A stretch of DNA of 34,309 nt from Clostridiales bacterium (GTDB lineage Bacteria; Bacillota; Sulfobacillia; UBA995). The notes below the pieces were generated by a model. That model saw nothing but the letters and a program-made list of their open reading frames with translations. It was not told the origin of the DNA and searched no databases. Both the position numbers and the translations under genes were made by a program. Positions 1 to 32,880 of the stretch are shown here, piece after piece (position 1 is the first letter of the stretch; the number at the start of each line of letters is the position of its first letter). The stretch spans positions 1-34,309 of the forward strand of contig DOZU01000206.1 in assembly GCA_003517845.1 (NCBI GenBank), in the 5' to 3' direction.

Positions 1-285
1 CAAGTTGCCGATGATCTTGGGCCGAGCTACGAACGTACCCTTGCCCTTGTGCCGGACCAGCAGACCCTCATTGACCAGCTCGTTCAGCGCCTGACGCACC
101 ACGGTCCGGCTGACGCCGAACTCCTGACACAGGTCTTGTTCCGACGGTATCTGATCGCCCTCAAGCAACGTCCCCTCATCAACGAGCGACTTGAGACTCT
201 CCTTGAGCTGATAATAATAGGGGATAGCCGTGCCCTTGTTTATCCGCGCGTTAGCCAGCTTGGACACCGGCGATCTTCCGGCCAT
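1..285 (-). CDS. GntR-family transcriptional regulator, N-terminal winged-HTH part (3' end outside window)
   Basis: Reverse translation from the ATG at 285 reads MAGRSPVSKLANARINKGTAIPYYYQLKESLKSLVDEGTLLEGDQIPSEQDLCQEFGVSRTVVRQALNELVNEGLLVRHKGKGTFVARPKIIGNL. This carries the classic GntR wHTH pattern (SE..L...GVSR.TVR.AL..L..EG.....G.G.FV). The frame stays open to base 1, so it is absent from the ORF track. Confidence 0.85.
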   Translation of the reverse strand, partial: MAGRSPVSKLANARINKGTAIPYYYQLKESLKSLVDEGTLLEGDQIPSEQDLCQEFGVSRTVVRQALNELVNEGLLVRHKGKGTFVARPKIIGNL

Positions 286-302
286 GCATGTCATCCCTTA
301 CG

Positions 303-652: not shown

Positions 653-681
653 TTGACAAGCATAGCCCGGTGCCCTAAACT
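653..681 (+). promoter_or_regulatory. sigma-A-like promoter, TTGACA (653-658) - 17 nt - TAAACT (676-681)
   Basis: Consensus -35 hexamer with a 17-nt spacer and a 4/6 match at -10. It lies about 60 nt upstream of the RBS-supported GTG start at 739. Confidence 0.45.
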
Positions 682-684
682 GAA

Positions 685-695
685 CCTGTAATGAT
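685..695. promoter_or_regulatory. candidate operator motif CCTGTAATGAT, copy 2 (just downstream of the -10)
   Basis: Exact repeat of 303-313. It is positioned at the predicted transcription start of the sugar operon. Confidence 0.3.
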
Positions 696-738
696 AGGAT
701 CACAACACTTGAGACGGCCAGCGGCGGAGGTGACGGTG

Positions 739-1632
739 GTGGCGAAGTTCAAGTATGCGGTGAGCAACTGGATCTACGGCGGCGAGGATCTGGAACTAAC
801 TTACCGGCGGTTGCATCGCGCCGGATTCGACGGAGTGGAACTCGTGGGCGAGCCGGACCGCCATGACCCGGAAAGGGTGCTCGCCCTGAACCGCCAGTAT
901 GGGCTGAAGGTGACATCGGTGCTCAGTTGGTGTCTATGGCCCATCGCCTCGCGCGACCTCGCTCACCCCGACCGGGAAATGCGGCGACAAGCGGTCGAAT
1001 ACATCGCCCGCAATGTCGATCTGGCGGTGGCGGTGGGGGCGCCTATCGTGGTGGTCATACCCGGCCCCGCCGGCCGGCCGGCACCCCACGGTGCCGGCGA
1101 GGACGCGCCGGCCTGGCAACGGCTTGCTCATGAAGAGTGGCAACTAGCGGTAGACTCGGTACGGACTGCCGCGGATTACGCTCGGGAACGCGGCGTGCTG
1201 CTTGCCGTCGAGCCGATCAACCGCTTCGAGTCTTACCTGGTGAACAGCGCTGTCCACGGGGTGGCTTTCATCAACGCGGTCGGCCAGGACAATGTCAAGC
1301 TGCACCTCGACACGTTTCACATGCACATTGAGGACCCCGATATCGGGGAAGCGATCCGCCTCGCCGGGCCCTTGCTGGTGAACATGCACCTCTCCGACAG
1401 CAACCGGCAGGCGATCGGCCGCGGCCACTTCGACTTCCGGGGCCTGTTGCGGGCCCTCCGCACCATCGACTACTCCGGGTATCTGGTGCTGGAGCCCCTG
1501 CCGGCCCATCCCAACCCCTTCGTCGGCAACCGGCTGGAGGAACACCGTGCCCGATGGGATGATGACGCCGCGGACAGCATCGCCTGCTTGCGCGGCTTGG
1601 AGCGAGGTCTGGGCTGGAGGCCCTCCGGTTGA
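739..1632 (+). CDS. sugar phosphate isomerase/epimerase (xylose-isomerase-like TIM barrel)
   Basis: ORF 691-1632 reads KFKYAVSNWIYG...GFDGVEL...LLAVEPINRFE...KLHLDTFHMHIED...GHFDF, typical of the AP-endonuclease-2/xylose isomerase-like family. GGAGGTGA at 726-733 favours the GTG at 739 over the ATG at 691, which lies inside the promoter/operator. Confidence 0.8.
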   Translation: MAKFKYAVSNWIYGGEDLELTYRRLHRAGFDGVELVGEPDRHDPERVLALNRQYGLKVTSVLSWCLWPIASRDLAHPDREMRRQAVEYIARNVDLAVAVGAPIVVVIPGPAGRPAPHGAGEDAPAWQRLAHEEWQLAVDSVRTAADYARERGVLLAVEPINRFESYLVNSAVHGVAFINAVGQDNVKLHLDTFHMHIEDPDIGEAIRLAGPLLVNMHLSDSNRQAIGRGHFDFRGLLRALRTIDYSGYLVLEPLPAHPNPFVGNRLEEHRARWDDDAADSIACLRGLERGLGWRPSG

Positions 1633-1674
1633 GCTGTGAGCCACGCCATTGATCATTCTCGGGGAGGTTTGGGC

Positions 1675-3495
1675 ATGTTCACCGGTGGGTACCTGGGCAA
1701 ACTGCTCCGAGTCGATCTGGCTCGGGAGCATCACGCAATCGAACCCGTGCCGGAAGCCATCTTCGAGCAGTACCTGGGCGGCCGCGGGGTGGCCGCCCAT
1801 TACTACCGCGAGGAACTGGGGCCGGCCGTGGACCCGCTTTCTCCCGCCAACAAGCTGATCTTCTTCACCGGCCCGCTCACCGGGCTGCCGCTGCCCGCCA
1901 CCACCAAGTTCCAGTGCGCCACCCGCTCGCCCGAGACCGGCATTTACCTGTGCACCAACTCCAGCGGCGAACTCGGGCCGTACCTGAAACGGCAGGGATA
2001 TGACGGTCTGATCATCGAAGGGCAGGCCAGGCGGCCTCTGTACCTCGCCATAGCCGGCGGCGGGGTCGAGTTCCGCGACGCATCCGACCTGGTGATGCTC
2101 GACACGCCGGCCGCCATCGAGGCGGTGCGAGCGGACGGGCCCGGGGCGGACGCGGCGGTCATGGCGATCGGACCGGCCGCATACAGCGGCGTGCGTTACG
2201 CCTGCATCATGGTAGGCGATCGCAGCTTCGGGAGGGGCGGAGCCGGCCGGGTCATGGCCGCCAAGGGACTCAAGGCGGTGGCCGTCGACCGCCGGGGCGA
2301 GATCCCGGTGGCGGACCGGGCTCGCCTGAAAGCGATCCTCCCCGTAGCCGCCAAGAATGCCCGCGAAACCAAGCGCACGCACAACCTGTTCGGGACTAAC
2401 CAGTACACCGAGGTCATGAACGAACTCGGGTGTTATTCGGTGCGGAATTTCACCACCGGCGTATTCGAAGGGGCGGCCACCCTCAGCAAGGACTACGTGA
2501 CCCGCCACTACAAGGACCGGAGCGCGGCGTGTTTCCGGTGTCCCGTGGCTTGCGCCCAGGTCTGCTCGGTGCGCGACGGCCCGCTGGCCGGGGCGGTCAG
2601 CGATCCCGAGTACGAAACGGTGGGGACGCTGGGCGGGGTGTGCGGCGTATCCGATTTCGCCGCCATCATCGCCGGCAATCAACTGTGCGACGAGTACGGC
2701 ATCGACACCATGACCGTTGGCTGTGTCATCGGCTATGCCATGGAGTGCTACGAACGGGGGCTCTTCACCCGGGAGGACACCGGGGGGCTGGAAGTCCGGT
2801 TCGGCGATGCCGCCGTCATGCTCGAACTGATCCGCCGGATCGGCCGGGGCGAGGGTTTCGGGAAGGTCCTGGGGAAGGGCTTTCGCGAGTTGGCACGTGC
2901 CTACCCGGCTACCGCGCCTTACATGATGCATGTCAAGGGCATGGCCTTCGCCGCCTACGAACCGCGGGGATTCTACGGCATGGCTCTGGCTTATGGGACC
3001 TCGAGCCGTGGGGCCTGCCACAATGTTGGCGGCTGGACCATTCGTGACGAGTTGCTCACCGGCGACTACGACCGCTTCGCCCTCGAGGGCAAGGGGGAAC
3101 TGGTGAAGCGGCTTCAGGATACCCGGGCCTACATCGACAGCCTGGGCATCTGCACCGTCGTCCGCAGTTCCATGGGGTTCACCGACTCGCCCACGGGGGA
3201 TGTGTTGCTGGCGGCTACCGGGGTGGACTTCACCCCGCGCCTGATGGCCATAGGACAGGACATCATCGATCTCGAACGGATGATCCTGGTCCGCGAGGGG
3301 ATCACCCGCGAGGACGATTACCTGCCCAATCGGATCTACACCGAGCCGCTGCCGGAAGGGCCGGCGCGGGGCAGGATTCTCACCCGCGAGATGTACGATG
3401 TCATGCTGGATGAGTACTATCGCCTGCGGAAGTGGGACCGGCAGGGTGTTCCGTCCGGTCGCGCTCAAGAAGGCGCGAGGGAGGCGGCCGGTTGA
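1675..3495 (+). CDS. aor: aldehyde:ferredoxin oxidoreductase family (tungstopterin enzyme)
   Basis: N-terminus MFTGGYLGKLLRVDL...EQYLGGRGVAAHYY. Cluster cysteines are CFRCPVAC plus DSLGIC. GGGGAGG lies 7 nt before the ATG at 1675. That start gives 606 aa, which fits the length I recall for this family. Confidence 0.9.
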   Translation: MFTGGYLGKLLRVDLAREHHAIEPVPEAIFEQYLGGRGVAAHYYREELGPAVDPLSPANKLIFFTGPLTGLPLPATTKFQCATRSPETGIYLCTNSSGELGPYLKRQGYDGLIIEGQARRPLYLAIAGGGVEFRDASDLVMLDTPAAIEAVRADGPGADAAVMAIGPAAYSGVRYACIMVGDRSFGRGGAGRVMAAKGLKAVAVDRRGEIPVADRARLKAILPVAAKNARETKRTHNLFGTNQYTEVMNELGCYSVRNFTTGVFEGAATLSKDYVTRHYKDRSAACFRCPVACAQVCSVRDGPLAGAVSDPEYETVGTLGGVCGVSDFAAIIAGNQLCDEYGIDTMTVGCVIGYAMECYERGLFTREDTGGLEVRFGDAAVMLELIRRIGRGEGFGKVLGKGFRELARAYPATAPYMMHVKGMAFAAYEPRGFYGMALAYGTSSRGACHNVGGWTIRDELLTGDYDRFALEGKGELVKRLQDTRAYIDSLGICTVVRSSMGFTDSPTGDVLLAATGVDFTPRLMAIGQDIIDLERMILVREGITREDDYLPNRIYTEPLPEGPARGRILTREMYDVMLDEYYRLRKWDRQGVPSGRAQEGAREAAG

Positions 3496-3752
3496 TCCGG
3501 GTGGAGGTCCGGTTTGCGGGGTTGCCCCGTACCGAGACCGGGGTGAAGGCCGAGACGCTCGAGCTGGAACCCGACATCACCCTGGGGACGCTGGTCGAAC
3601 GGTTGAACCAGCGCTACTCCTGGGAAATCGGGCGGGGCGAGTCTCAGTTCATCCTCCTCAACCAGCGCGGTCTCCGCCGGGAGCGCTGGGCCCATACGCG
3701 GCTCGAGGACGGAGACAGCGTGCTGGTTATATCCGCCATTGCGGGAGGCTGA
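3492..3752 (+). CDS. MoaD/ThiS-like beta-grasp protein ending in Gly-Gly
   Basis: The TTG at 3492 overlaps the AOR stop. The translation is LIRVEVRFAGL...ETLELEPDITLGTLVERL...LEDGDSVLVISAIAGG*. The diglycine comes immediately before the stop. The ORF-track start at 3432 adds an Arg-rich tail that overlaps AOR. Confidence 0.7.
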   Translation: MIRVEVRFAGLPRTETGVKAETLELEPDITLGTLVERLNQRYSWEIGRGESQFILLNQRGLRRERWAHTRLEDGDSVLVISAIAGG

Positions 3753-3755
3753 TCC

Positions 3756-4757
3756 ATGGGCTACCGGGTGCTCGTGACGCCCCGTTCTTTCGCGCAACTC
3801 GACCGCGAACCGTTGACGCGGCTTGAGGAAAGCGGCTGCGAGGTGAGGCGGAATCCCGGGGAGCGGCCGCTGACCGAGGCGGAGATGGCCGATGCGATAG
3901 CAGGTGCGGACGGGTTAATCGTGGGCATCGACCCGGTCACCGAGCGGGTACTCGCCGCGGCTCCCGGCTTGCGGGTCATCTCGAAGTACGGCGCGGGGGT
4001 GGACAACATCGACCTGCCGGCGGCCAGTAACCGGCGGATAGTGGTGACCGCCACTCCCGACGCCAACACGGAAGCGGTGGCCGACTTGACCCTGGGCCTC
4101 ATGCTGGCCGCCGCGCGGGGCATCGCCCACGCCCACACGGCCCTCCGGGAAGGTAGCTGGCAGCGCCACCTGGGCAGGGACCTCTGGGGGCGCTCGCTGG
4201 GTCTGGTGGGCACCGGGCGCATCGGGCGGGCGGTAGCCAGACGAGCCCGCGGCTTCGACATGTCGATCCTGGCCTATGACCTTCAACCCGACCCGACCTG
4301 GGCGGCCGGAGTTGGGGCCGCGTACGTCCCGCTCGAGGAGCTGTTCGCGGGCAGCGACTTCGTGTCCCTGCATATCCCGGTAACGCCTTCGACGCACCAG
4401 CTCGTCGGACACCGCCTGCTGGGACTCATGCGGCCGTCGGCCGTACTGGTGAACACGGCTCGCGGCGGGCTGATCGACGAAACCGCCCTGGTGGAGGTGT
4501 TGACCGCCGGCGGGATATTCGCGGCGGCGCTGGACGTATTCGCGAGCGAACCGCTTCAGGACGAACGGCTCCGGTCGGCGCCTCGGGTGGTGTTGACCCC
4601 GCACATCGGTGCTTCGAGCCGGGGCGCTCTCTTGCGGATGGGTCAGGAGGCGGTAGATAACCTGCTGGCGGTGCTGGCAGGGGGCCATCCCGCCCAGGTG
4701 GTGAACCCGGAAGTGTATCCGTGCGCGTCGGGAAAGGGACGGATGAGTCGATGCTGA
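3756..4757 (+). CDS. D-isomer-specific 2-hydroxyacid dehydrogenase (PGDH/GyaR-like)
   Basis: GLVGTGRIGRAVARRA Rossmann motif, then VNTARGGLIDE and TPHIGASS. GGGAGG RBS upstream. Confidence 0.85.
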   Translation: MGYRVLVTPRSFAQLDREPLTRLEESGCEVRRNPGERPLTEAEMADAIAGADGLIVGIDPVTERVLAAAPGLRVISKYGAGVDNIDLPAASNRRIVVTATPDANTEAVADLTLGLMLAAARGIAHAHTALREGSWQRHLGRDLWGRSLGLVGTGRIGRAVARRARGFDMSILAYDLQPDPTWAAGVGAAYVPLEELFAGSDFVSLHIPVTPSTHQLVGHRLLGLMRPSAVLVNTARGGLIDETALVEVLTAGGIFAAALDVFASEPLQDERLRSAPRVVLTPHIGASSRGALLRMGQEAVDNLLAVLAGGHPAQVVNPEVYPCASGKGRMSRC

Positions 4758-5770
4758 AAGCGGATCTGGTCGGCGTGGGCGTGATCGGAACCGGTCGGGC
4801 CGGGAGGGTCCATGCGCAGAACTTTGCCCGCCATGTGCCGGAAGCGCGACTGGTGGCGGTGTACGACCCCGATCCGGTGAGTGCCGGGGAAGTGGCCCAG
4901 CAGCTCGGGGCCCGCTTCTGCCCGAGCCTCGAGCAGTTGCTCGCTGAACCCAGCCTGGATGCGGTGGTGATCGCGGCGCCGACCCCCTTCCATGCGGACC
5001 TGGTCACGGCGGCCGCCGAGGCCGGCAAAGCCATTTTGTGTGAGAAGCCGCTGGCCCTGACCGTCGAGGAAGCGCAGCGGATGGCGGCGGTGGTGGCCGA
5101 CCGGGGCGTGGTCTTCGTGATGGCGTTCATGCGTCGGTTCGACCAGGGTTTTCTGAGGGGCCGTCAACTCATCGAAGAGGGTGCCATCGGCGTGCCCTTG
5201 ATGGTCAAGTCCACGGGAAAGGGGCCGGGCCTGCCGCCCCGGTGGGCGTGGGACGTGGCCCGGAGCAACGGCATGCTGGGGGAGGTCAACAGCCATGACT
5301 TCGACTGCCTCCGCTTCCTGACCGGCCGGGAGTTCGAATGGGTATTCGCCGTCGCCCACAACAACAAGTGTCCGGAACTAGCGAGGGAGTTCCCCGATTT
5401 CTATGACACGGCGGCGGTGACGGTTGCGATGTCGGGGAACCTGATCGGCGCCATCGACGGCGCCTGCCCGGCGGACTATGGATATGACGCGCGGGTCGAG
5501 GTGCAGGGCAGTGAGGGAGTACTCTTCTTGGGCAGCCTTTCGCGGCCGGGGACGGTGGTCGGCACCCGGCACCGCGGGGTGACCATGGACATCGTTGACA
5601 GCTGGCGTTCGCTGTTTCGCGAGGCCTACCTGGCCGAGGACCGCCACCTGATCGAATGCCTGCTCACCGGGGCTGAGCCCCGTTCGACCCTGGAGGATGG
5701 ATACCAGGCCCTCCGGGCGGTGGTGGCCGCCAACCGCTCGGTACGCCGCCGGCAGGTGGAGGAGGTCTGA
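4751..5770 (+). CDS. Gfo/Idh/MocA-family NAD(P) oxidoreductase
   Basis: MLKADLVGVGVIGTGRAGRVHAQNF...ILCEKPLALTVEEA. The ATG at 4751 overlaps the upstream stop by 7 nt. Confidence 0.85.
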   Translation: MLKADLVGVGVIGTGRAGRVHAQNFARHVPEARLVAVYDPDPVSAGEVAQQLGARFCPSLEQLLAEPSLDAVVIAAPTPFHADLVTAAAEAGKAILCEKPLALTVEEAQRMAAVVADRGVVFVMAFMRRFDQGFLRGRQLIEEGAIGVPLMVKSTGKGPGLPPRWAWDVARSNGMLGEVNSHDFDCLRFLTGREFEWVFAVAHNNKCPELAREFPDFYDTAAVTVAMSGNLIGAIDGACPADYGYDARVEVQGSEGVLFLGSLSRPGTVVGTRHRGVTMDIVDSWRSLFREAYLAEDRHLIECLLTGAEPRSTLEDGYQALRAVVAANRSVRRRQVEEV

Positions 5771-6822
5771 TGGCGACCATGCTGGCTGCCGAGTACCGCG
5801 ACGGCCGCATCGAGGCGCGGCAGTTGCCCCGGCCCCGCCCGGGCGCGGGCGAGGTCCTGTTGCAAGTGGAGGCGGCCGCGCTGTGCGCGACCGACCTGAA
5901 GATCTGGCAGCGCGGGCACCGGAACATCCCCCCGGATGCCGGGGCGATCCTGGGCCATGAAGTCGTGGGTTCGGTGGTCGAGGCGGGAGAGGGGATCGGT
6001 CAGGGCTGGCTGGGGAAGCGGGTCGTGGTCGCCCCCAACATCGGTTGCGGTCTTTGTCCCGCTTGCCAGGTCGGCCGCGACAGTTACTGCCCCGACTACC
6101 GCGCTTTCGGGGTGGGGCTCGCGGGTGGTCTGGCCGAGTTCATGCTGGTCACGGCTCCGGCAGTGGTCAGGGGCAACCTGGTGGAGGTACCCCGGGAACT
6201 GCCGGCGGACCTGGCCGTGCTGGCCGAGGCGGCCGGCTGCTGCTACCGGGGGTTGCAGGCCTGTTCGCTCCGTCCGGGAGAAGCGTGCCTGGTACTTGGC
6301 GTCGGCCCCATGGGCATACTGTCGGTCGTGCTGGCCCGGGCCATGGGGGCGGCGCCCGTATTGGCCGCCGACCCGCTGGCCGACCGGCGAAGCCGGGCCC
6401 GGGAATTCGGTGCCGACCAGGCGATCGACCCTGCGGCGGAGGACTTCCCTGAGCGAGTGCGCGCGCTGACCGGCGGGCAGGGCGCCGACGTGGCCATAGT
6501 CACCGCCCCGGTGGCGGACGCTCAGCGCCAGGCGATCCTCGCCGCGGCCGTGGGCGGCCGGGTCAACCTGTTCGCGGGTCTGTCGGGTCCCGGGGAACTC
6601 AACCATTTCCCGAGCAATCTCGTTCATTACCGCGGCCTACAGGTCCTCGGCACCACCGGGGCCGGCGCCGCCGAACTGCGCGCGGTGGTGTCCATGATGG
6701 CTGCCGGGCGCCTCGAGCCGTTGCGGCGGGTGGCCACCGCCTCTTATCCCTTGTCGCGGGCGGCGGACGCCCTGGAGGAAGCCCGGCAGGGGAAGGGAAT
6801 CAAGACACTGGTCATCCCGTAG
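5770..6822 (+). CDS. zinc-type (MDR) alcohol/polyol dehydrogenase
   Basis: LCATDLKIW...GHEVVGSVVEAG...CGLCPACQVGRDSYC...VLGVGPMG. The ATG overlaps the upstream TGA (TGATG). Confidence 0.85.
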   Translation: MATMLAAEYRDGRIEARQLPRPRPGAGEVLLQVEAAALCATDLKIWQRGHRNIPPDAGAILGHEVVGSVVEAGEGIGQGWLGKRVVVAPNIGCGLCPACQVGRDSYCPDYRAFGVGLAGGLAEFMLVTAPAVVRGNLVEVPRELPADLAVLAEAAGCCYRGLQACSLRPGEACLVLGVGPMGILSVVLARAMGAAPVLAADPLADRRSRAREFGADQAIDPAAEDFPERVRALTGGQGADVAIVTAPVADAQRQAILAAAVGGRVNLFAGLSGPGELNHFPSNLVHYRGLQVLGTTGAGAAELRAVVSMMAAGRLEPLRRVATASYPLSRAADALEEARQGKGIKTLVIP

Positions 6823-6859
6823 GCGACCGGACGCCCGGTGACCGTGGAGGCGAGCGAGT

Positions 6860-8416
6860 ATGGCTGAGCCTTGTCTGCTGGGAGTCGACCTGGGCACGAT
6901 GGGGACCAAGGCGGCCCTTTACGACCTCGAGGGGAAGCTGCTGGGGGACGCTTACGAGGAATCGATCCTCCGCTATCCTCGAGTCGGCTGGGTGGAACAG
7001 GATCTCGAGGAGATCTACGCGTCGGCCGTCAACTGCATTGGGTTGGCCCGGGAGCGAGCCGGCGTGGACGCCGGGTCCATAGCCGCCCTGGCCTTCTCCA
7101 GCCAGATGTCGGGGATCGGCATGATCGACCGCGACTGGCGGCCCGTGGCCCACTACGATAGCTGGTTGGATACCCGCTGTGCCGCATGTCTACCCCTGCT
7201 TCAGCCCGAGGCCGAGACGATGACCGCCCTCAGCGGCTGCCCGCCTACTTATGCCCATGCCGCCAAAGTGGTATGGTGGCAACGCAACCAGCCCGAAGCT
7301 TTCGCCCGCACGGCGAAATTCATCGTGCCCCTCGCCTACGTGGCCGGCAAGCTGGCCGGCCTGAAGGCCGAGGACGCATACATCGACTTGACCTGCTTGC
7401 ACTTCTCCGGTCTCAGCGACACCCTCCGGGGGTGCTGGTCAGCCGAGTTACTCGACCGATTCGCCATCCCCTCGGCCAAGCTGCCCCAAATCGTCAGTTC
7501 CACCCGGGTGATCGGTGAGGTCACCCCCGAGGCGGCCCGGATCACCGGCTTGAGGGCGGGAACCCCCATCGCCGCGGGAGCGGGCGACCAGGCCGCCGCC
7601 TCCCTGGGCGCGGGGGCCGTCAGCCCGGCGGACGTGTTCGACAGCGCCGGCACGGCATCAGTGTTCTCGATCTGCGTCGACCAATTCCGTCCCGACTTGC
7701 GGAATCAGGTGGTGCTCGCCTCCCATGGGGTCATCCCCGGCACCTTCTATGCACTGTCCTTTATCAACGGCGGGGGGCTCAACCTGCGCTGGTTCCGCGA
7801 GCAGTTCGGCCAGGCCGACCTGGCGTCGGTGCCTGTGGCCGACGCCTACCGGGCGCTGGATCGGCTGGCGGCGGCGGTGCCTCCAGGGTCAGGAGGGACG
7901 CTGTTCATCCCTCACCTCCAGGGCCGAGTATTGCCCCCGGATGCCAAGCTACGCGGACTGTGGACGGGGTTCACCTGGGCCCACTCCCGCGCCCACCTGT
8001 ATCGGGCGATGCTCGAGGCGGTGGCCTACGAGTATGCTTACTACCTGAACATCGAACAGGAACTTCACCCCGAACTCCGCTGCCGCGAGGTGCGGGCGAT
8101 CGGCGGCGGTGCGGCGAGCGCTCTGTGGAATCAAATCAAGAGCGATGTGCTCGATATCCCCTACGCGCGGGTCAGCCGGGCGGAAGTGGGCACCTGGGGT
8201 TCGGCCATGATCGCCGGCGCGGCCGTGGGCATTTTCGGCGACCTCGGTGCTACCGCCCGGGCGCATGCGGGACTCAGCGGCCGGGTCGAGCCCAGACCCG
8301 ACCAGCACCGGCTCTACCGTCCCTATGTGGAGCTATATCGCAAGATCCTCGAGGGCTACTCCGCGCACTTCGGCGCATTGACCGACTTGGCGGATCAGGC
8401 GGACGGTCCCGGTTGA
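6860..8416 (+). CDS. FGGY-family carbohydrate kinase (xylulokinase/gluconokinase-like)
   Basis: LLGVDLGTMGTKAALYD...GAGDQAAASLGAG...IGGGAASALWNQIKSDV. Confidence 0.85.
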   Translation: MAEPCLLGVDLGTMGTKAALYDLEGKLLGDAYEESILRYPRVGWVEQDLEEIYASAVNCIGLARERAGVDAGSIAALAFSSQMSGIGMIDRDWRPVAHYDSWLDTRCAACLPLLQPEAETMTALSGCPPTYAHAAKVVWWQRNQPEAFARTAKFIVPLAYVAGKLAGLKAEDAYIDLTCLHFSGLSDTLRGCWSAELLDRFAIPSAKLPQIVSSTRVIGEVTPEAARITGLRAGTPIAAGAGDQAAASLGAGAVSPADVFDSAGTASVFSICVDQFRPDLRNQVVLASHGVIPGTFYALSFINGGGLNLRWFREQFGQADLASVPVADAYRALDRLAAAVPPGSGGTLFIPHLQGRVLPPDAKLRGLWTGFTWAHSRAHLYRAMLEAVAYEYAYYLNIEQELHPELRCREVRAIGGGAASALWNQIKSDVLDIPYARVSRAEVGTWGSAMIAGAAVGIFGDLGATARAHAGLSGRVEPRPDQHRLYRPYVELYRKILEGYSAHFGALTDLADQADGPG

Positions 8417-8461
8417 GGCGAGAGGACAGGGAGGCGGCAAGCTTTGTCCAGCAGGAACCAC

Positions 8462-9025
8462 ATGGCTCCGTTCGCGGTCAATATTGACTTGAATACGGGC
8501 CACATTGGGCCGCCCGCCCGGGCGCTCACCCGCCGCCTCAGCGATCTGCGGGGGCTCTTCTGCGATGAGGCAGCCTACAGTGCGCTGACGGCGGCGGGGG
8601 ATCCGGTGGTCTATGAAGTGTACGAAGTCCGGGTGCCCGAGGAAGACGGCCATCTCCTGTCCTGCACCACCATAATCCACCCTGGCCAGGTGGGCCGGGA
8701 ATACTTCTTCACCAAGGGCCATTATCACCTCAGCGAACCCCGGGCGGAGATCTACACCTGCCTGCGGGGTGAAGGCTACCTGCTGCTCGGGAACCGTGAG
8801 GGTGAAAGCCGGAGCATCGTCATGATCCCGGGGGTATCGGCCTACATACCGCCTTACTGGGCGCACCGCACCCTGAACACGGGGAGCCATCCCTTCATCT
8901 TCCACGGGGTGTGGCCGGGCGACTCCGGGCACGACTACGGCAGCATTGAGCAGGCAGGGTTCCCCTTGCGGGTTTTTGAAGAGCGGGGCCGACCGGCAGT
9001 AAAGGCTTCGGCGGGCCCTTGCTGA
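8462..9025 (+). CDS. pgiA: cupin-type glucose-6-phosphate isomerase (archaeal-type cPGI family)
   Basis: MAPFAVNIDLNTG...RRLSDL...DPVVYEVYEV...FFTKGHYH...AEIYTCLRGEG...YIPPYWAHRTLNTG...PGDSGHDYGSIEQAGF. This aligns by eye along the full length of Pyrococcus-type cupin PGI as I recall it. That alignment favours the ATG at 8462 over the TTG at 8444. Confidence 0.8.
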   Translation: MAPFAVNIDLNTGHIGPPARALTRRLSDLRGLFCDEAAYSALTAAGDPVVYEVYEVRVPEEDGHLLSCTTIIHPGQVGREYFFTKGHYHLSEPRAEIYTCLRGEGYLLLGNREGESRSIVMIPGVSAYIPPYWAHRTLNTGSHPFIFHGVWPGDSGHDYGSIEQAGFPLRVFEERGRPAVKASAGPC

Positions 9026-9047
9026 AGGAGAGGAGAAGAGGATCGGC

Positions 9048-9698
9048 ATGCAAGAGCAACTGCTGCGGGCGATCGGGGAGTGCGGGGCGGTCGCGATCAT
9101 CCGCCGGGTGCCCCCGCCGGCCGCGGAGCGTATCGCCGCCGCCTTGAGGGCCGGGGGCTTGCCTCTGGTAGAGATAACCATGGACAGCGAGGATGCCCCC
9201 GGGGTCATCGCACGACTGATCCGGGACTCGGAGTCGGGGAGCTTCATCGGCGCGGGCACGGTGCTGGATGCAGCCGCGGCCCGGGAGGCCATCGCCGCCG
9301 GCGCCCACTTCCTGGTGGCGCCTAACCTGGACCATGGGGTGATCGAGACCGGCCTGCGCTACGGCAGGGTGGTCATACCGGGAGTGCTGACGCCGACGGA
9401 GATCGTGACGGCCCTGCAGGCCGGGGCGCAGATCGTGAAGGTGTTTCCGGCGGGCAGCCTGGGACCCGAATACATCCGGCAGGTAAGGGCACCGCTCCCT
9501 CAGGCCAAGATCATGGCGACGGGAGGGGTGAGCGCCGACAACGCCGGCGACTTCATCCGCGCCGGGGCTTTCGCGGTGGGGCTGGGCGGCAAGCTGGTCG
9601 ACGCCCGGGCGGCAGCCGAGGGCAGATACGAGGCGATTACGGCCGCCGCAGCGGCGGTGCTGGCCGCGGTGCGTTCGGCCCGTCCCGCCTCCGGCTAG
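9048..9698 (+). CDS. eda: 2-dehydro-3-deoxy-phosphogluconate (KDPG)/KHG-type aldolase
   Basis: AVAIIR...GGLPLVEITMDS...GAGTVLD...GAHFLVAPNLD...PGVLTPTEI...IVKVFPA. This is the Eda/DgoA class I aldolase pattern. Confidence 0.8.
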   Translation: MQEQLLRAIGECGAVAIIRRVPPPAAERIAAALRAGGLPLVEITMDSEDAPGVIARLIRDSESGSFIGAGTVLDAAAAREAIAAGAHFLVAPNLDHGVIETGLRYGRVVIPGVLTPTEIVTALQAGAQIVKVFPAGSLGPEYIRQVRAPLPQAKIMATGGVSADNAGDFIRAGAFAVGLGGKLVDARAAAEGRYEAITAAAAAVLAAVRSARPASG

Positions 9699-9741
9699 CT
9701 GAGCCGGAGCAGATCCGCCTGCCCCGCGGGGCGCCGCGAGC

Positions 9742-10989
9742 ATGAAGATTTTCGCAGCAGCAGGAGTTGTTGCTTCCAGGACGAAGTCGCTGCCCATGGC
9801 TCGTAAGCCCTGGTGGGGACGAATTGGTGTCTTCCGATTGCCCCGCGGCATCCTGTTACTCGGCCTGGTGAGCTTCCTGACCGACCTGTCCAGCGAGACG
9901 ATCCTGCCCCTGCTCCCGCTGCATCTGGCGGCGCTGGGAGCCACCGGCGTAGCCGTCGGCCTGGTGAGCGGATTGGGCGATGCCGCGGCAGACCTGCTGA
10001 AAGTCTTCGCCGGGTACGCCGGCGATCGAACCGGCCGCAAGCGACCGCTCGTCCTGGCCGGTTATGCTCTGTCGGCCCTGGGCAAGTTCCTGTTTCCGCT
10101 GGCGGCGACCTGGCAGCAGTTCCTGGTGTTCCGCCCCCTCGAACGCCTGGGCAAAGGCCTCCGTTCGGCGCCGCGAGACGCCATCATCACCGACCTGGCG
10201 GACCCGCAGGCACTGGGCTTGGCCTTCGGCTTCCACCGCGCCGCCGACACCGCCGGCGCCATCGCCGGCACGGTCCTGGGGATCGCGCTGATCGGGTGGA
10301 TGCAACTGGAAATCCGCACCGTCCTGTTCATCGGCGCGGCGTTAGCCCTGGCGGCGGTGCCCTGGTTGTTCCTGCTGCGAGAGCAGGTCCGGCCGCCCGT
10401 CAACCGCTCGCTCGCCCTGCACATCTCCTCGCTGCCGCGACCTGCCCGCCGCTTGCTGGCTGTGGGCGCCGTGTTCGGCCTCGGCAAGGTCGGGTACATG
10501 TTCTACCTCCTCAAGGTCTCCGGGCACTTCGCGGGACCGATGGCCACCTTGGCCCCCCTCCTCCTCTACCTCTGGTTCAACCTGATCTATACCGTAGCCG
10601 CCGTCCCGGCGGGCCGGTGGTCGGATCGGTCGGGGCGCCGCCCGGTGCTGTCGGCCGGCCTGGTCCTGCTCGCTTTGGCCAGCCTGGGGGTCGGGTATTC
10701 GACGGCGGTCCTCCCGCTGGTCGCGGCCTTCGGCATGTACGGTGTGGCGAACGGTCTGCTCGAAGGCAACTTCCGCGCTTACCTGGGGGATCTCAGTCCC
10801 GACGCCAGCCGGGGAACGGCTATGGGGCTATTCCACACCGTGTCCGGGTTGGCTGCCTTGGCCGGAGGGCTGGTGGCGGGGCTCCTGTGGGACCGTCTGG
10901 GGGGCCCGGCGCCCTTCGTCTGGGGTGCCGTCCTGTGCCTGGCTGCCGCCTGCATGTTGACCAGGGTCACTCCGGTCGCCCGGCAGTGA
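9742..10989 (+). CDS. MFS transporter
   Basis: About 12 hydrophobic segments, with DRTGRKRPL and DRSGRRPVL loop motifs (MFS signature between TM2/3 and TM8/9). The start is uncertain (ATG 9742 or 9796). Confidence 0.8.
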   Translation: MKIFAAAGVVASRTKSLPMARKPWWGRIGVFRLPRGILLLGLVSFLTDLSSETILPLLPLHLAALGATGVAVGLVSGLGDAAADLLKVFAGYAGDRTGRKRPLVLAGYALSALGKFLFPLAATWQQFLVFRPLERLGKGLRSAPRDAIITDLADPQALGLAFGFHRAADTAGAIAGTVLGIALIGWMQLEIRTVLFIGAALALAAVPWLFLLREQVRPPVNRSLALHISSLPRPARRLLAVGAVFGLGKVGYMFYLLKVSGHFAGPMATLAPLLLYLWFNLIYTVAAVPAGRWSDRSGRRPVLSAGLVLLALASLGVGYSTAVLPLVAAFGMYGVANGLLEGNFRAYLGDLSPDASRGTAMGLFHTVSGLAALAGGLVAGLLWDRLGGPAPFVWGAVLCLAAACMLTRVTPVARQ

Positions 10990-11090
10990 GGCAAGACCTT
11001 CATGCTCATCGGGGTACCCCGGGGCAGGAAAGCCACGGGTCGGCGGTAGCCCTCATTGTCGCGGCAGGGCAGGTCGCGTCCATATTGGCG

Positions 11091-11139
11091 GTAGGGGCCC
11101 CGGTCATACCCATCGGGCGGGTTCGGAACCCGCCCCTAC
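11091..11139. repeat. REP-like hairpin, second copy, 5' arm apparently split
   Basis: Core GGGCGGGTTCGGAACCCGCCCCTAC spans 11115-11139 and differs from 482-506 only in the loop. GTAGGGG at 11091-11097 looks like the displaced outer 5' arm, separated by about 17 nt. The element lies between convergent genes and contains the DinB stop codon. Confidence 0.6.
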
Positions 11140-11609
11140 AGTGGAGGCCAGGCTCCGGCCAGGCGCAGTAGCGCGACCAGTTGGCCCAGGTGATAGGCGT
11201 TGTGGATGATCAGCGCCTGGTAGGTCCAACCCAGCGTGTCCTTGGGCCAACTCGGCACCGGATCGGCCGGTTCCAGCCGTTCGAGTAGCGCCGAGGCTCG
11301 CTCCACGGCATCGAGCAGGCGCTCGGCCATGGCCTTCCATCCCGACGGCCCCTGGAACTCCGCGGGTACTTGCCAGGTAGAGGCAAGATCCTGCGGCCAC
11401 TCCTTCGGCTCGTTCGCCAGGCAGGCGGTGAGCACCTCCGCCCAGACGAGGATGTGGTAAAGGCATTCCCGGGCAGTGTTGGGCATCCCCGGCCAGCGGC
11501 GGTCGGCGCTCTCGCCGGGGTCCGCGCCGAGGATGCGGGGCAGCGGCAAATGGCCCTCCGCACCCTGGAGACCCTTCCGGATGGATTCCTTCCAGGCGTC
11601 GCTATTCAT
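11136..11609 (-). CDS. DinB-family (four-helix-bundle metal-binding) protein
   Basis: ECLYHILVWAEV...TYQALIIHNAYHLGQLVALLR. The His-containing helices are typical of the DinB/YfiT-like family. Confidence 0.7.
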   Translation of the reverse strand: MNSDAWKESIRKGLQGAEGHLPLPRILGADPGESADRRWPGMPNTARECLYHILVWAEVLTACLANEPKEWPQDLASTWQVPAEFQGPSGWKAMAERLLDAVERASALLERLEPADPVPSWPKDTLGWTYQALIIHNAYHLGQLVALLRLAGAWPPL

Positions 11610-11951
11610 GGCTGAAGTATATCACCAGATCCGCCCCTTGCGGCAGCACTCCGTCAAGGATTACCGGCGGCGCGCGTTTCCCTCGAGCAGGGCTGACACG
11701 GCGATGTCCTCGCCTACATCTTGAGTTGCTCTCATTCCTGAAGTTTCCTGGAGGATCCCTTTTTCTGCAAGGGTACTGCCTCCCGCGTGACGATGTCAAC
11801 GAGTCCGGCGCAGCCCCTTTCGGACGGGGTTGCTCGTTGCGGCTTCCAGGGAGATTGGTGGGTGAGGGCGAATGTCCCAGGGGCAGTCCAGCCCGCTTTG
11901 GCGCGCGCAGCCGGCAGGCAGGCAATCGGCAGGATGGGGAGGAGTTGGGAC

Positions 11952-14759
11952 ATGGTTGACCGCACCCGGCGGGAAGCGGATGGTCCGGCGTGGCATTGCC
12001 TTGATGCCGAGGAGACCCTTACCCGCCTGGATACGGGTCCGGGCGGACTTGGCGCCGGTGAGGCGGCGCGTCGCCTGGCCCAGCACGGTCCCAATGAGTT
12101 GGCCGACCGCGGAGCCCGGCACCCGGCACGGCTGTTTCTCGAGCAGTTCACCTCATTGATGGTGGTCATATTGCTGGGGGCGGCGGGCCTGTCGGTCGCC
12201 CTCGGCAAGCTGCTTGAGGCCGGGGCCATCCTGGCCATCGTTTTCCTGTTCGCCGTGCTGGGCTTCGTGCAGGAGTACCGGGCGGAGCGGGCCATCGCTG
12301 CCCTCAAGCGGCTGGCGGTCCCCTGGGTGCGCGTCACCCGGGACGGGCGCCAGCAAGCGATCTCGGCGGCGGCGCTGGTGCCCGGCGACCTGGTTTCGCT
12401 TGAGACCGGCAACTTCGTGCCGGCCGACCTGCGCCTGCGCGAGACGGTCAATCTCAGGGTTCAAGAAGCGGCGCTCACCGGCGAATCGGAGCCGGTGGAG
12501 AAAGACGCGGTCAGCCTGACCGATCCCGCTCTCCCCCTCGGCGACCGCAGGAACCTCGCCTACCGGGGCACAGTGGTGAGTTACGGGCGGGGCGAGGGGG
12601 TGGTGGTAGCCACCGGCATGGACACCGAACTCGGCCGCATCGCCGGCCTGCTCCAGGAAGTACGGGACGAGGCCACTCCCCTGCAGCGGCGGATTGAGCG
12701 TGTCGGTAAGCTGCTGGCGGCGGGAGGCACGGTGGTGGCCGTGCTGGTCATGGCGGCCGGTTTGCTGGCGGGAGAGCCCTGGGAGGTGATGGTCCTCGCC
12801 GCCATCAGCGTGGCGGTGGCCGTCGTCCCCGAGGGCTTGCCGGCGGTGCTCACTTTCACCCTGGCCCTGGCCACCCAGCGCATGCTCCGCCGCAACGCCC
12901 TCATCCGGCGGCTGCCGGCCGTGGAGACCCTGGGGTCGGTGACGACCATCTGCTCGGACAAGACGGGTACGCTCACCGAGAACCGCATGACGGTAACCAT
13001 ATTGGACGTGGCCGGCCACCGCCTGGATCTCGTCGAGACCATGCGCCGGCGCATGCCGGCGGTGGAGCCGGGCAGGTCCGAAGCTGGCGGCTTCTCCGCG
13101 ATCGGCCTGGTCCTGGCCGGCGGCGCCCTGTGCAACGACGCGGTGCTGCAAGCTGAAGCCCGACCCGGGCACTTCCACGCTCTGGGCGATCCCACCGAGG
13201 GGGCGTTGCTGGTCGCGGCCGTTCATGGCGGGATGAGCAAGGCGGACCTCGAGCGGGTCATGCCCCGGGTGGGGGAGTTGCCTTTTGACTCCGACCGCAA
13301 GCGGATGACCACCGTTCACCGTCGCCCCGGTGCCGGCGCCGAGGTGCCATCCCCGGTGCTGGCGGCGTGGGGGGAGGGCGGTCTCGCGCCGGATTGCCCG
13401 CATATAGTCGTCACCAAGGGGGCGGTTGACCGGATCCTCGAGGTCACGGAACGGGTATGGGATGGCGATGGTCCGGTATCCCTCGACGCCGACTTCCGGA
13501 GACGGATCCAGGCTGCCCATGAGGACCTGGCCGACGACGGCATGCGGGTGCTGGGAGTGGCCTTTCGGCCGGCAGCGCGGGATGTCCCGGCCCACGAACT
13601 CGAGCGGGGCCTCATCTTCCTGGGAATGGTGGGGATGATCGATCCGCCGCGGCCAGAAGTTCGCGCCGCTATCGCCACCTGCAAGGCTGCCGGCATCCGT
13701 CCGGTGATGATCACCGGCGACCATCCCCTGACCGCAGCGACCATCGCCCGCGACCTGGGGATCGGGAGCGACGGCAGTCCGCTTACCGGAGCCATCCTCG
13801 ACGGGATGGGGGATGAAGAGCTGGAGCGCATCGCCGAGCAGACGGCGGTGTACGCCCGCGTGAGCCCCGAGCACAAGCTGCGAATCGTCCGGGCCCTCCG
13901 CCGCCGGGGCCACGTGGTCGCCATGACCGGGGATGGGGTGAACGACGCGCCGGCCTTGCGGCTGGCCGACATCGGGGTGGCCATGGGGGTGACGGGGACG
14001 GACGTCACCCGGGAGGCGGCCGACATCGTGCTGCGCGATGACAACTTCGCGACCATCGTCGCCGCCGTTGAGGAAGGTCGAACGGTATACGACAATATCC
14101 GGCGCTTCGTGAAGTTCGCAGTAGCCGGCAACATCGGCAAGGTTGGGGCCATGCTGCTGTGGCCGATGTTGTCCGCCGCCGCGGGCGCACCGCCCGGGTC
14201 CGCCGTCGCCCTGCTGCCCCTGCAACTCCTCTGGCTGAACCTCATGACCGATGGGCTGCTGGGCATGTCCATGGGCCGGGAACCGGCGGAGGAGAACGTG
14301 ATGGCCCGGCCGCCCAACCCACCGCGAGCCGGACTCTTCACCGGCACCGGCTGGCATGTCCTGTGGGTCGGCGGCTTCATCGGCGCCACCTCCTTGGCCG
14401 TCGGCGCGTGGTACTACGGGCGGGGGCTCGAGCAGTGGCAGACCATGATCTTCACCACTATGGGCTTGACTCAGGTATTCCATGCCCTCGTGACCCGTTC
14501 CGCGTACCGGTCCATCTTTCGGATGAGTCCCGTGAGTAATCCGCTGCTACTGCTCATCGTCCCCCTGGTAGTCGCCATGCAGTTGGCTGCAGTCTACCTC
14601 CCCTTCCTGCGGGAGGTGCTGCTGCAACTGGTGCCGCTTTCCGGGCCTGACCTGGCGGTGAGCGCGGCCGTCAGTGCCTCTTTACTGGCAGCGGTGGAGT
14701 TCGAGAAGCTGTTCATCCGCCGGAGGCGGCAGGGCGAGGCGGGTGTCCCGGGATGTTGA
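11952..14759 (+). CDS. P-type cation-transporting ATPase, P2A (Ca2+-ATPase-like)
   Basis: CSDKTGTLTENRM phosphorylation motif, PEGLPAVLT (M4), MITGDHPLTA, MTGDGVNDAPAL and NLMTDGLLG (M6). GGGGAGGAG lies 7 nt before the ATG at 11952, whereas the ORF-track start at 11787 adds 55 non-conserved residues. Confidence 0.9.
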   Translation: MVDRTRREADGPAWHCLDAEETLTRLDTGPGGLGAGEAARRLAQHGPNELADRGARHPARLFLEQFTSLMVVILLGAAGLSVALGKLLEAGAILAIVFLFAVLGFVQEYRAERAIAALKRLAVPWVRVTRDGRQQAISAAALVPGDLVSLETGNFVPADLRLRETVNLRVQEAALTGESEPVEKDAVSLTDPALPLGDRRNLAYRGTVVSYGRGEGVVVATGMDTELGRIAGLLQEVRDEATPLQRRIERVGKLLAAGGTVVAVLVMAAGLLAGEPWEVMVLAAISVAVAVVPEGLPAVLTFTLALATQRMLRRNALIRRLPAVETLGSVTTICSDKTGTLTENRMTVTILDVAGHRLDLVETMRRRMPAVEPGRSEAGGFSAIGLVLAGGALCNDAVLQAEARPGHFHALGDPTEGALLVAAVHGGMSKADLERVMPRVGELPFDSDRKRMTTVHRRPGAGAEVPSPVLAAWGEGGLAPDCPHIVVTKGAVDRILEVTERVWDGDGPVSLDADFRRRIQAAHEDLADDGMRVLGVAFRPAARDVPAHELERGLIFLGMVGMIDPPRPEVRAAIATCKAAGIRPVMITGDHPLTAATIARDLGIGSDGSPLTGAILDGMGDEELERIAEQTAVYARVSPEHKLRIVRALRRRGHVVAMTGDGVNDAPALRLADIGVAMGVTGTDVTREAADIVLRDDNFATIVAAVEEGRTVYDNIRRFVKFAVAGNIGKVGAMLLWPMLSAAAGAPPGSAVALLPLQLLWLNLMTDGLLGMSMGREPAEENVMARPPNPPRAGLFTGTGWHVLWVGGFIGATSLAVGAWYYGRGLEQWQTMIFTTMGLTQVFHALVTRSAYRSIFRMSPVSNPLLLLIVPLVVAMQLAAVYLPFLREVLLQLVPLSGPDLAVSAAVSASLLAAVEFEKLFIRRRRQGEAGVPGC

Positions 14760-32454: not shown

Positions 32455-32880
32455 ATGGCCATATTCGCCCGAGCCGAGGACGTGTATGCCGCCATTGGGG
32501 CGCTGTTCGAGTGGGGGAGCCAGGACGGGGAACTTGGACCCAAGATCGGCGAGTCGGGCTTGACCATCCGCTTCGTCTATCACCGGCCTGATGCGGAGAT
32601 CACGGTCGACGCCAAGGCGGTGCCGCCCGAAGGACGCCACTTCACGGTGCACTGCGGCCCGTCGGACCTCAAGGCCGACGTGACCATGGAGATGGACTCC
32701 GACATCGCTCACACTTTCTGGTTCGGCAAGATGAATCTCATGACCGCGCTTGCCCGGGGGCAGATGAAGGCGGTAGGCCCCATCCAGAGCATCCTGAAGC
32801 TCCTGCCCGCCATCAAACCTGCTTACCGGAAGTATCCCGAGATCGCCCGCTCCCTGGGCCTGCCCGGGGGCGAGGCATGA
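32455..32880 (+). CDS. SCP2 (sterol-carrier-protein-2-like) domain protein
   Basis: ADVTMEMDSDIAHTFWFGKMNLMTALARGQMKAVGPIQSILKLLPAIKP is the typical SCP2 C-terminal pattern. GGGAGG RBS upstream. Confidence 0.7.
   Translation: MAIFARAEDVYAAIGALFEWGSQDGELGPKIGESGLTIRFVYHRPDAEITVDAKAVPPEGRHFTVHCGPSDLKADVTMEMDSDIAHTFWFGKMNLMTALARGQMKAVGPIQSILKLLPAIKPAYRKYPEIARSLGLPGGEA

Follow-up and report, generated by a model that had tools for sequence, protein, structure and literature searches.

Cupin-type phosphoglucose isomerases (cPGIs) of bacteria were reportedly described from Salmonella and Ensifer by Hansen et al. in 2005, and the myo-inositol pathway of Thermotoga maritima, said to have been worked out by Rodionova et al. 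in 2013, comprises the enzymes IolG, IolM, IolN and IolO. For the tungsten-containing enzymes of the aldehyde oxidoreductase (AOR) family, the WORs, a classification of 2026 found a member of defined physiological function in only five of 92 clades, and the prevailing view of the single-subunit WORs other than GAPOR is that they detoxify aldehydes (PMC13328260); the words 'sugar' and 'carbohydrate' are both absent from its text. The same classification sets out the concept of WorX, an optional ThiS-like partner gene of Class I WORs, and a conserved pterin/catalytic set consisting of Thr243, Glu313, Tyr427 and His448. Here we analyse a stretch of 34,309 nucleotides from a Clostridiales bacterium (contig DOZU01000206.1), referred to below as the window and numbered from its first letter, in which a tungsten-type AOR is the second gene of an operon for sugar catabolism that also encodes a cPGI and an Eda-type aldolase. 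The gene set of this operon is conserved well beyond the genus, its AOR belongs to a dedicated clade, and in other versions of the gene cluster the AOR is replaced, but never accompanied, by one of two other enzymes. The explanation that we favour, to which we would give a probability of roughly 45%, is that the operon is an anaerobe's version of a widespread sugar-catabolic module, in which the AOR would oxidise C1 of an aldose, or aldose phosphate, made by the isomerase. The predicted products of the operon are the following:

736 or 739 to 1632, plus strand: xylose-isomerase-like TIM barrel, of epimerase, isomerase or dehydratase type (PF01261, 156 bits)
1636 to 3495, plus strand: AOR (WorL), Class I tungsten type (PF02730 and PF01314)
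3492 to 3752, plus strand: ThiS/MoaD-like beta-grasp protein of WorX type, with a C-terminal GG (PF02597)
3756 to 4757, plus strand: D-isomer-specific 2-hydroxyacid dehydrogenase (2HADH), PGDH/glyoxylate-reductase-like (PF02826, PF00389)
4721 or 4751 to 5770, plus strand: Gfo/Idh/MocA dehydrogenase (Gfo), IolG-like (TIGR04380, 273 bits against a cut-off of 355)
5770 to 6822, plus strand: Zn-dependent medium-chain dehydrogenase (Zn-ADH), IolM/threonine-DH-like (Pfam/NCBIfam)
6860 to 8416, plus strand: FGGY sugar kinase, xylulokinase/gluconokinase-like (TIGR01312, 252 bits against a cut-off of 380; GntK, 193 bits)
8444 to 9025, plus strand: cupin-type phosphosugar isomerase of the cPGI family (PF06560)
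9048 to 9698, plus strand: KDPG/KHG-type class I aldolase of the Eda family (PF01081)
9742 to 10989, plus strand: MFS transporter, the final gene of the operon (PF07690)

The AOR matches its two domains over the full length of the protein (PF02730, 216 bits; PF01314, 394 bits), which has 619 residues from the GTG at 1636 or about 606 if a later start is used. Among the PDB sequences it lies closest to the AOR of P. furiosus (PfAOR; 1aor, 373 bits), followed by two further AORs (9g7j, 360 bits; 9mqx, 355 bits) and the Aromatoleum AOR (343 bits), with FOR (271 bits), Haloferax WOR83 (236 bits), WOR5 (226 bits) and BamB (118 bits) scoring lower. The GAPOR equivalog NF040818 (GAPOR_Arch) gave 26 bits against a cut-off of 1300, and matched residues 64-145 alone. 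By these comparisons the enzyme is classed as a Class I WOR, outside both GAPOR and FOR. The phmmer alignment to 1aor showed that PfAOR Thr243, Glu313, Tyr427 and His448 are all retained, as are, in the same numbering, Cys288, Cys291, Cys295 and Cys494, which we take from the PfAOR structure to be the ligands of the [4Fe-4S] cluster. The neighbours of the AOR gene encode the TIM barrel and the WorX-like protein, and no gene for a WorS FeS, polyferredoxin or flavoprotein subunit is adjacent to it; because no such gene lies beside the AOR and a ThiS-like gene follows it, the enzyme would be, in the terms of PMC13328260, a Class I WOR with WorX. Ferredoxin-linked aldehyde oxidation, already put forward in the original prediction for this DNA, would be the natural reading of a single-subunit enzyme of this class. 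A TupA-like periplasmic binding protein with an ATTTS motif is encoded elsewhere in the genome (contig C119, 5758-6756, reverse strand), and LATTTSTADSGLL in this protein is, we presume, the motif of TupA-type tungstate binders; the protein would weakly support the use of tungsten. The WtpA model had no match in the same genome.

A search seeded with the AOR gave 33 loci, whose neighbours within 10 kb were compared with the operon genes. Homologues of the operon genes surround every AOR of 45-94% identity apart from the one on a 3-kb contig without context, and are missing from the loci at 30-36% identity, bar one distant Zn-ADH-like match. The gene order of the operon is repeated in the close relatives L001 and L002 (AOR identity 94% and 89%, respectively) and the core of the module recurs across phyla, so that the gene set recurs far beyond chance. 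The linked AORs are carried by Bacillota (among them Syntrophomonadaceae, Neomoorella and Christensenellales), by a metagenome-assembled genome (MAG) of the Limnocylindrales, by Thermodesulfobacteriota/'Deltaproteobacteria' and by Spirochaetota, and their clade spans at least five phyla. In the opposite direction, a search with an alignment of cupin PGIs matched at least 585 bacterial loci, and in 16 of the best 80, which were inspected, an AOR lies near the cPGI; ten of these are on contigs that the AOR search had missed, and all ten of the AORs newly found in this way fall inside the module clade.

That clade was defined in a maximum-likelihood tree of 42 sequences (GAPOR, WOR4, GOR and XOR being absent from it, and the three PDB sequences being represented by their aligned regions), in which the 25 module AORs and the one context-less AOR group together in one clade (support 100/100) whose sister group (95/83) consists of PfAOR and the Aromatoleum AOR. 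Outside it lie FOR, which groups with the paralog on contig C17, the low-identity AORs and all five of the genome's other AOR paralogs. The tree supplies the subfamily that the original prediction could not assign by eye, and the AOR is co-conserved with the sugar genes in related loci and is an integral part of the operon, not a detoxifying bystander, so that the outcome named as refuting that prediction did not arise. A GG-ended, ThiS-like (WorX) open reading frame (ORF) follows 17 of the 25 module AORs. The AOR clade probably has a fixed metabolic role in the module. The window holds a second AOR-family gene (32877-34309), with a frame open to 35042 on contig C100 and 721 residues in all; it groups in the tree with the paralog on contig C97 of the same genome, far from the module clade.

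Three loci retain only part of the set. In two Deltaproteobacteria MAGs (L009 and L013, ~4800-13600) the AOR clade is found with 2HADH and with distant homologues of the FGGY kinase and Zn-ADH (24-32% identity), and neither cPGI nor Eda occurs within 10 kb of the AOR; this marks the pair of AOR and 2HADH as the most persistent unit. On the chromosome of Neomoorella carbonis (L014, 5843-14164) a reduced set of AOR, WorX, 2HADH, cPGI and a 90-residue FGGY fragment directly follows the genes for a dehydratase-group glycyl-radical enzyme and its activase, and is either a decaying module or a case in which the AOR was recruited for an aldehyde from the radical dehydratase.

The cPGI of the operon matches PF06560 at 107 bits and the cPGI of T. 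litoralis (1j3p) at 2e-60. Its residues H93, H95, E102 and H141, which correspond to the metal ligands His88, His90, Glu97 and His136 of PfPGI, are invariant in nine module homologues, and so, across the variants of the module, is the GH-Y motif. Residues Y52, T85, Y99, H158 and Y160, all of them conserved, are presumably contacts for the substrate or its phosphate, and such conserved contacts would argue for, without proving, a ligand resembling a hexose 6-phosphate. Clustering of the mechanically called ORFs from 89 loci, with a gene counted when near the cPGI, gave an FGGY kinase in 57 of the 89, a 2HADH in 51, a Zn-ADH in 48, a Gfo in 45 and an Eda in 41, and the TIM-barrel gene in only part of the module loci. 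The module is found in Planctomycetota, Verrucomicrobiota, Actinomycetota, Chloroflexota, Pseudomonadota, Bacillota and others, the carriers in the Pseudomonadota being plasmids of Rhizobium, Shinella and Sinorhizobium. The cPGI is the anchor of this bacterial catabolic module (FGGY, Gfo, Zn-ADH, cPGI, 2HADH and Eda). In the rhizobial version the upstream half consists of other dehydrogenases (SDR and GldA) and the half with cPGI, Eda and 2HADH is unchanged, which suggests that different upper pathways feed into one and the same lower pathway. The transporter is of the MFS type here, and CUT2-type ABC genes are found in most of the other sampled loci with a transporter in range. Our full-text literature searches found no paper describing the cluster. 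With at least 585 matching bacterial loci in many phyla, the cupin PGI cannot serve as the archaeal hallmark for which it had been taken in the original prediction, and the archaeal-style hybrid of Entner-Doudoroff and Embden-Meyerhof routes proposed there is not supported either, as cPGI is widespread in bacteria, the AOR is not a GAPOR and the same module occurs elsewhere with other enzymes in place of the AOR.

Those other enzymes provide the evidence that bears most directly on the substrate. Among the module loci, 25 have an AOR, 9 an aldehyde dehydrogenase (ALDH, PF00171) and 30 a shikimate-dehydrogenase-like (SDH-like) gene, and in none does the AOR occur together with either of the other two. 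The 51 loci with a 2HADH comprise 18 with the AOR only, 24 with the SDH-like gene only and none with both (Fisher p = 1.7e-7), and a hydrolase of the MBL-fold or PTE family is found in 17/30 SDH-like loci against 0/33 AOR or ALDH loci (p = 1.2e-7), although both p-values overstate the case because related loci are not independent. The ALDH and SDH-like genes lie close to the cPGI gene (median distances of 22 and 35 nt, respectively), and the AOR adjoins 2HADH, its tightest partner, with WorX between them (median gap of 200 nt). The module ALDH has its closest matches among SSADH/GabD-like enzymes, under the cut-off. The SDH-like protein (318 residues) gives no hit to Pfam at 1e-6 and is recognised only through a profile search, which assigns it to the shikimate dehydrogenase superfamily (1nvt, 2.6e-10); in RefSeq it is annotated 'shikimate dehydrogenase'. 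Many residues are invariant in its family (L097:9013-9969 and 29 other loci), examples being THKID, GAGGS and NATGxGKD. The ALDH and SDH-like versions of the module occur mostly in non-anaerobic lineages.

An AOR and an ALDH both convert an aldehyde into an acid, and a dehydrogenase with a lactonase achieves the same for a cyclic hemiacetal, which is why we propose that the AOR acts on C1 of the aldose, or aldose phosphate, made by the cPGI. The hydrolase alongside the SDH-like gene points to a cyclic hemiacetal sugar, and the pattern as a whole favours, as the substrate of the AOR, a cyclisable aldose (or its phosphate) from the isomerase over a product of the aldolase. Of the earlier interpretation of the AOR, the part that gave it a catabolic job in the operon therefore stands, and the part that named the aldolase product as its substrate gives way to the product of the isomerase.

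Several features of individual module versions may be recorded here. A family of ~444 residues without a Pfam match (L093:5466-6800, L015:6516-7841 and 9 more loci) adjoins a second Gfo gene and a TIM-barrel gene in versions from Planctomycetota and Verrucomicrobiota. In three Spirochaetota loci (L012, L016 and L091, ~1500-5500) a second FGGY kinase, a DeoC/LacD-family aldolase and the GntR regulator of the module are encoded divergently from it. In the metagenomic sample DeoC-type genes accompany AOR versions, ALDH versions or versions with neither, never SDH-like ones; S. meliloti Ak57 (L115) does combine a DeoC gene with an SDH-like one. The record for that strain, CP090106.1, is labelled 'pSymB' and, at 3.7 Mb, is presumably the chromosome; its cPGI locus has no near-identical copy in any other plasmid record, and no counterpart of it was found in strain 1021.

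In the pathway that we favour, the IolG-like Gfo and the Zn-ADH, joined here by the TIM-barrel enzyme, would oxidise or rearrange an imported polyol, cyclitol or sugar, and the FGGY kinase would phosphorylate the product. The cupin isomerase would convert the resulting ketose phosphate into an aldose phosphate, and the AOR, matured with WorX, would oxidise the C1 aldehyde of the sugar (phosphate) to an aldonate and pass the electrons to ferredoxin. The D-2-hydroxyacid dehydrogenase would then oxidise C2 of this product, and the Eda-type aldolase would cleave the 2-keto acid to pyruvate and a triose (phosphate). The order of the steps, the ferredoxin acceptor and the class of substrate are what we infer from the gene set. 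The Eda of the operon scores 121 bits with PF01081 and is marginal with TIGR01182 (154.7 bits against a cut-off of 156.05). No classical PGI was found in the genome of this bacterium, which is 77% complete.

Some points weigh against this pathway, the most serious of which is that no version of the cluster contains a dehydratase. None of the 89 clustered loci has an IlvD/Edd gene, and the single IlvD/Edd-family gene of the same 77% complete genome (535 residues, contig C56) is unlinked to the operon. Eda-type aldolases require a 2-keto-3-deoxy acid and, with no dehydratase, the conversion of aldonate to 2-keto acid followed by Eda cleavage would work only with a 3-deoxy sugar or with unusual chemistry. 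One of three things must hold: the sugar is already 3-deoxy, or the TIM-barrel enzyme, which is not universal, makes the deoxy position upstream, or the chemistry of the aldolase or 2HADH is unusual. Enzymes of the AOR and ALDH types also need a free aldehyde, of which hexose 6-phosphates offer mere traces. The SDH-like protein resembles 5-ketofructose reductase as well, and so could be a ketoreductase, not necessarily the functional equivalent of the AOR. The exclusivity could in part mirror lineage (aerobes against anaerobes), related loci not being independent, and several seemingly complete clusters are without Eda. All of the data are genomic, mostly from MAGs, with ORFs called mechanically.

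A bolder version of the pathway, which we consider unlikely, makes the lower module (cPGI; AOR, ALDH or SDH-like with lactonase; 2HADH; Eda-like) a dehydratase-free alternative to the Entner-Doudoroff pathway, in which a sugar phosphate would be converted into a phospho-aldonate and then into a 2-keto acid that is cleaved directly, the reason being either a natural substrate that is already 3-deoxy or the release of hydroxypyruvate, and not pyruvate, by this lineage of Eda. If this were true, the tungsten enzyme would, in anaerobes, oxidise a sugar phosphate larger than glyceraldehyde 3-phosphate (GAP), which would be the first such substrate for the AOR family.

The AOR might instead oxidise a small aldehyde released by Eda (glyceraldehyde, GAP or lactaldehyde), after which 2HADH would oxidise glycerate, 3-phosphoglycerate or lactate; glyceraldehyde or GAP was the substrate favoured in the original prediction. 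The AOR and 2HADH do form the tightest pair, and the AOR adjoins Eda as well in loci of Spirochaetota and Thermodesulfobacteriota, but the ALDH and SDH-like genes sit at the cPGI and not at Eda, and in L014, L072, L073, L085, L086 and L101 an AOR or SDH-like gene is found with cPGI and 2HADH and with no Eda within 10 kb. The exchange of the AOR for an ALDH would fit any aldehyde, whereas pairing an SDH-like enzyme with an MBL/PTE hydrolase would be pointless for aldehydes incapable of lactone formation, and it is because glyceraldehyde and GAP cannot form lactones that this explanation, doubtful but deserving of attention, ranks second. The conversion of lactaldehyde through lactate to pyruvate would be chemically neat, and the closest characterised relatives, PfAOR and the Aromatoleum AOR, prefer small free aldehydes; the score of only 26 bits with the GAPOR model counts on the other side. 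A lower probability attaches to a variant of the Thermotoga-type myo-inositol route, in which the AOR would oxidise a ring-opened aldehyde (a uronate, for example) and the cupin protein would be a uronate-type isomerase. The top NCBIfam matches of three operon proteins are indeed IolG, IolM and IolO, yet all of the scores are far under the curated cut-offs (273 against 355, 180 against 450 and 146 against 300 bits, respectively); the Gfo protein has its best PDB match in 3ezy ('Dehydrogenase'), ahead of annotated inositol dehydrogenases, but the operon lacks a ring-cleaving (IolN-type) hydrolase and any equivalent of UxaA/UxaB or KdgK. The CUT2-type ABC transporters of sister loci would suit cyclitols, although the TIM barrel is missing from many loci, rhizobia swap the upper module for SDR and GldA while keeping the lower one, and the cPGI retains the residues that we take to bind phosphate.

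It is very improbable, in our view, that the AOR runs in reverse, reducing a sugar acid with reduced ferredoxin to an aldose that the kinase and isomerase would pass on to glycolysis. AOR-family enzymes are reversible, and among the carriers are acetogen-like and syntrophic lineages, in which reduced ferredoxin is plentiful, but the same slot is held elsewhere by an ALDH, practically one-way towards the acid, or by a dehydrogenase with a lactonase, and 2HADH and Eda would be left without a role. Least probable of all, and strongly disfavoured, is a broad-specificity detoxifying AOR merely riding in the operon. The genome has at least six AOR paralogs, and detoxification is what the published account of Class I WORs emphasises (PMC13328260), but none of the other paralogs falls inside the module clade, and that clade, linked to the module in at least five phyla, is dedicated to a slot that an ALDH fills in sister clusters. 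Known routes were also compared with the gene set. The classical Entner-Doudoroff pathway is ruled out, no Edd or Zwf being present in any cluster. The 4-deoxy-uronate route of pectin and alginate (analogues of KduI, KduD, KdgK and KdgA) is attractive in being dehydratase-free but is now a remote idea; among the annotated gene families there are no lyase, GH88/105 or KdgF neighbours, and the transporters are of the monosaccharide CUT2 type or MFS. The pathways for sulfoquinovose, 6-deoxyhexoses, tetritols, apiose, levoglucosan and L-glucose each need an absent enzyme or leave core enzymes idle.

The ten genes of the operon (736-10989) are all on the plus strand, and Pfam and NCBIfam bear out the family that the original prediction had given to each. 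Their junctions are tight (in order 3, -4, 3, -37 or that of the later start, -1, 37, 27, 22 and 43 nt), and a GGAGG-like ribosome-binding site (RBS) precedes eight of the nine internal starts, none being visible ahead of the MFS start. For the TIM barrel an open ATG is also found at 691 and the RBS favours the GTG at 736/739; the WorX-like ORF starts with the TTG at 3492, in a 4-nt overlap with the AOR stop. In NCBIfam the TIM barrel comes closest to IolO (146 bits) and psicose 3-epimerase (144 bits), in each case far under the cut-off, and 2HADH scores 277 bits with the PGDH model and 244 bits with GyaR, both likewise under the cut-off. The features upstream of the operon, which include the consensus-like promoter and the divergent GntR gene that had already been recognised, are the following:

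1 to 294, minus strand: GntR/HutC-type regulator, N-terminal 98 residues (winged HTH), cut by the contig end
303 to 313, plus strand: 11-mer CCTGTAATGAT, copy 1, an exact repeat within the window, preceding the regulator gene
653 to 681, plus strand: predicted sigma-70-like promoter TTGACA-17-TAAACT, with 10/12 consensus matches
685 to 695, plus strand: 11-mer CCTGTAATGAT, copy 2, 3 nt past the -10 hexamer

The truncated regulator matches the complete GntR+UTRA regulator of L034 at 99% identity, and GntR/UTRA regulators linked to the module in other phyla at 38-58%, the representative of its family having a Pfam match to UTRA+GntR, and we propose that the operon is controlled by a GntR/HutC repressor specific to the module. 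Both copies of CCTGTAATGAT are kept in L001 and L002, with a spacer of 382 nt in the window, 193 nt in L001 and 273 nt in L002; retention of the pair despite the changing spacer length fits an operator pair, and the two copies are probably an operator for the GntR regulator with one half in each. A GC-rich palindrome, GGGGCGGGTTTGGAACCCGCCCC, is found at 478-508 in the intergenic region between the GntR gene and the operon, with a near copy past the MFS gene at 11115-11139. The inspected intergenic stretch of L001, where the 11-mers are separated by 193 nt and not by 382 as here, lacks it, which gives it the look of a REP-like insertion.

An orthologous AOR was found in two of 30 taxonomic relatives, both of them in the same genus (95% and 89% identity), and the other 28, from the same family, order and class, have AOR paralogs at best (at most 43% identity). 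More distant orthologs (58-74% identity) are carried by members of other orders and phyla. The confinement of the ortholog to its own genus among the relatives, together with its presence in other phyla, suggests that the operon may have been acquired horizontally.

The link of a whole AOR clade to one catabolic module, in which an ALDH can take its place, gives a bacterial tungsten enzyme a concrete, testable role in several phyla. The module occurs in hundreds of bacterial loci, including those of cultivable rhizobia and bacilli, and matches no pathway that we found; solving it in an aerobic carrier would name the substrate of the AOR and could reveal a new sugar route. The results also correct the habit of taking the cupin PGI as an archaeal marker.

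Compared with the described systems, the operon shares elements with each and coincides with none. The cupin PGIs of Salmonella and Ensifer belong to the same family as the operon cPGI and have the same metal site, but theirs are stand-alone glycolytic isomerases, whereas the operon enzyme anchors a conserved catabolic module. The inositol pathway of T. maritima has counterparts of the IolG-like Gfo, the IolM-like Zn-ADH and the IolO-like TIM barrel, and likewise an Eda-type aldolase at its end; the operon adds AOR, cPGI, 2HADH and the FGGY kinase, and is without an IolN-type hydrolase, UxaA/UxaB and KdgK. The likeness to the upper Entner-Doudoroff pathway (Pgi, Zwf, Pgl, Edd and Eda) is partial, consisting of an isomerase, an oxidation at C1 (with a lactonase in the aerobic variant) and an Eda-type cleavage. 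The module, in contrast, has no Zwf or Edd, places 2HADH in the position of the dehydratase, assigns the C1 oxidation to an AOR, ALDH or SDH-like enzyme, and adds Gfo, Zn-ADH and the FGGY kinase upstream. GAPOR, in the modified Embden-Meyerhof pathway of the Thermococcales, is likewise an AOR-family enzyme with a fixed sugar-catabolic role, oxidising a phosphorylated aldehyde with ferredoxin, but it belongs to a different clade and has different partners, and the likely substrate of the operon AOR is not GAP. With the Class I WORs of the PfAOR clade the operon AOR shares a single large subunit of AFOR_N and AFOR_C domains, the conserved residues and a WorX gene downstream; however, the characterised ones, GAPOR excepted, are broad-range aldehyde oxidisers without a pathway context, whereas the operon AOR belongs to a 100/100 clade of its own that is embedded in one sugar-catabolic module.

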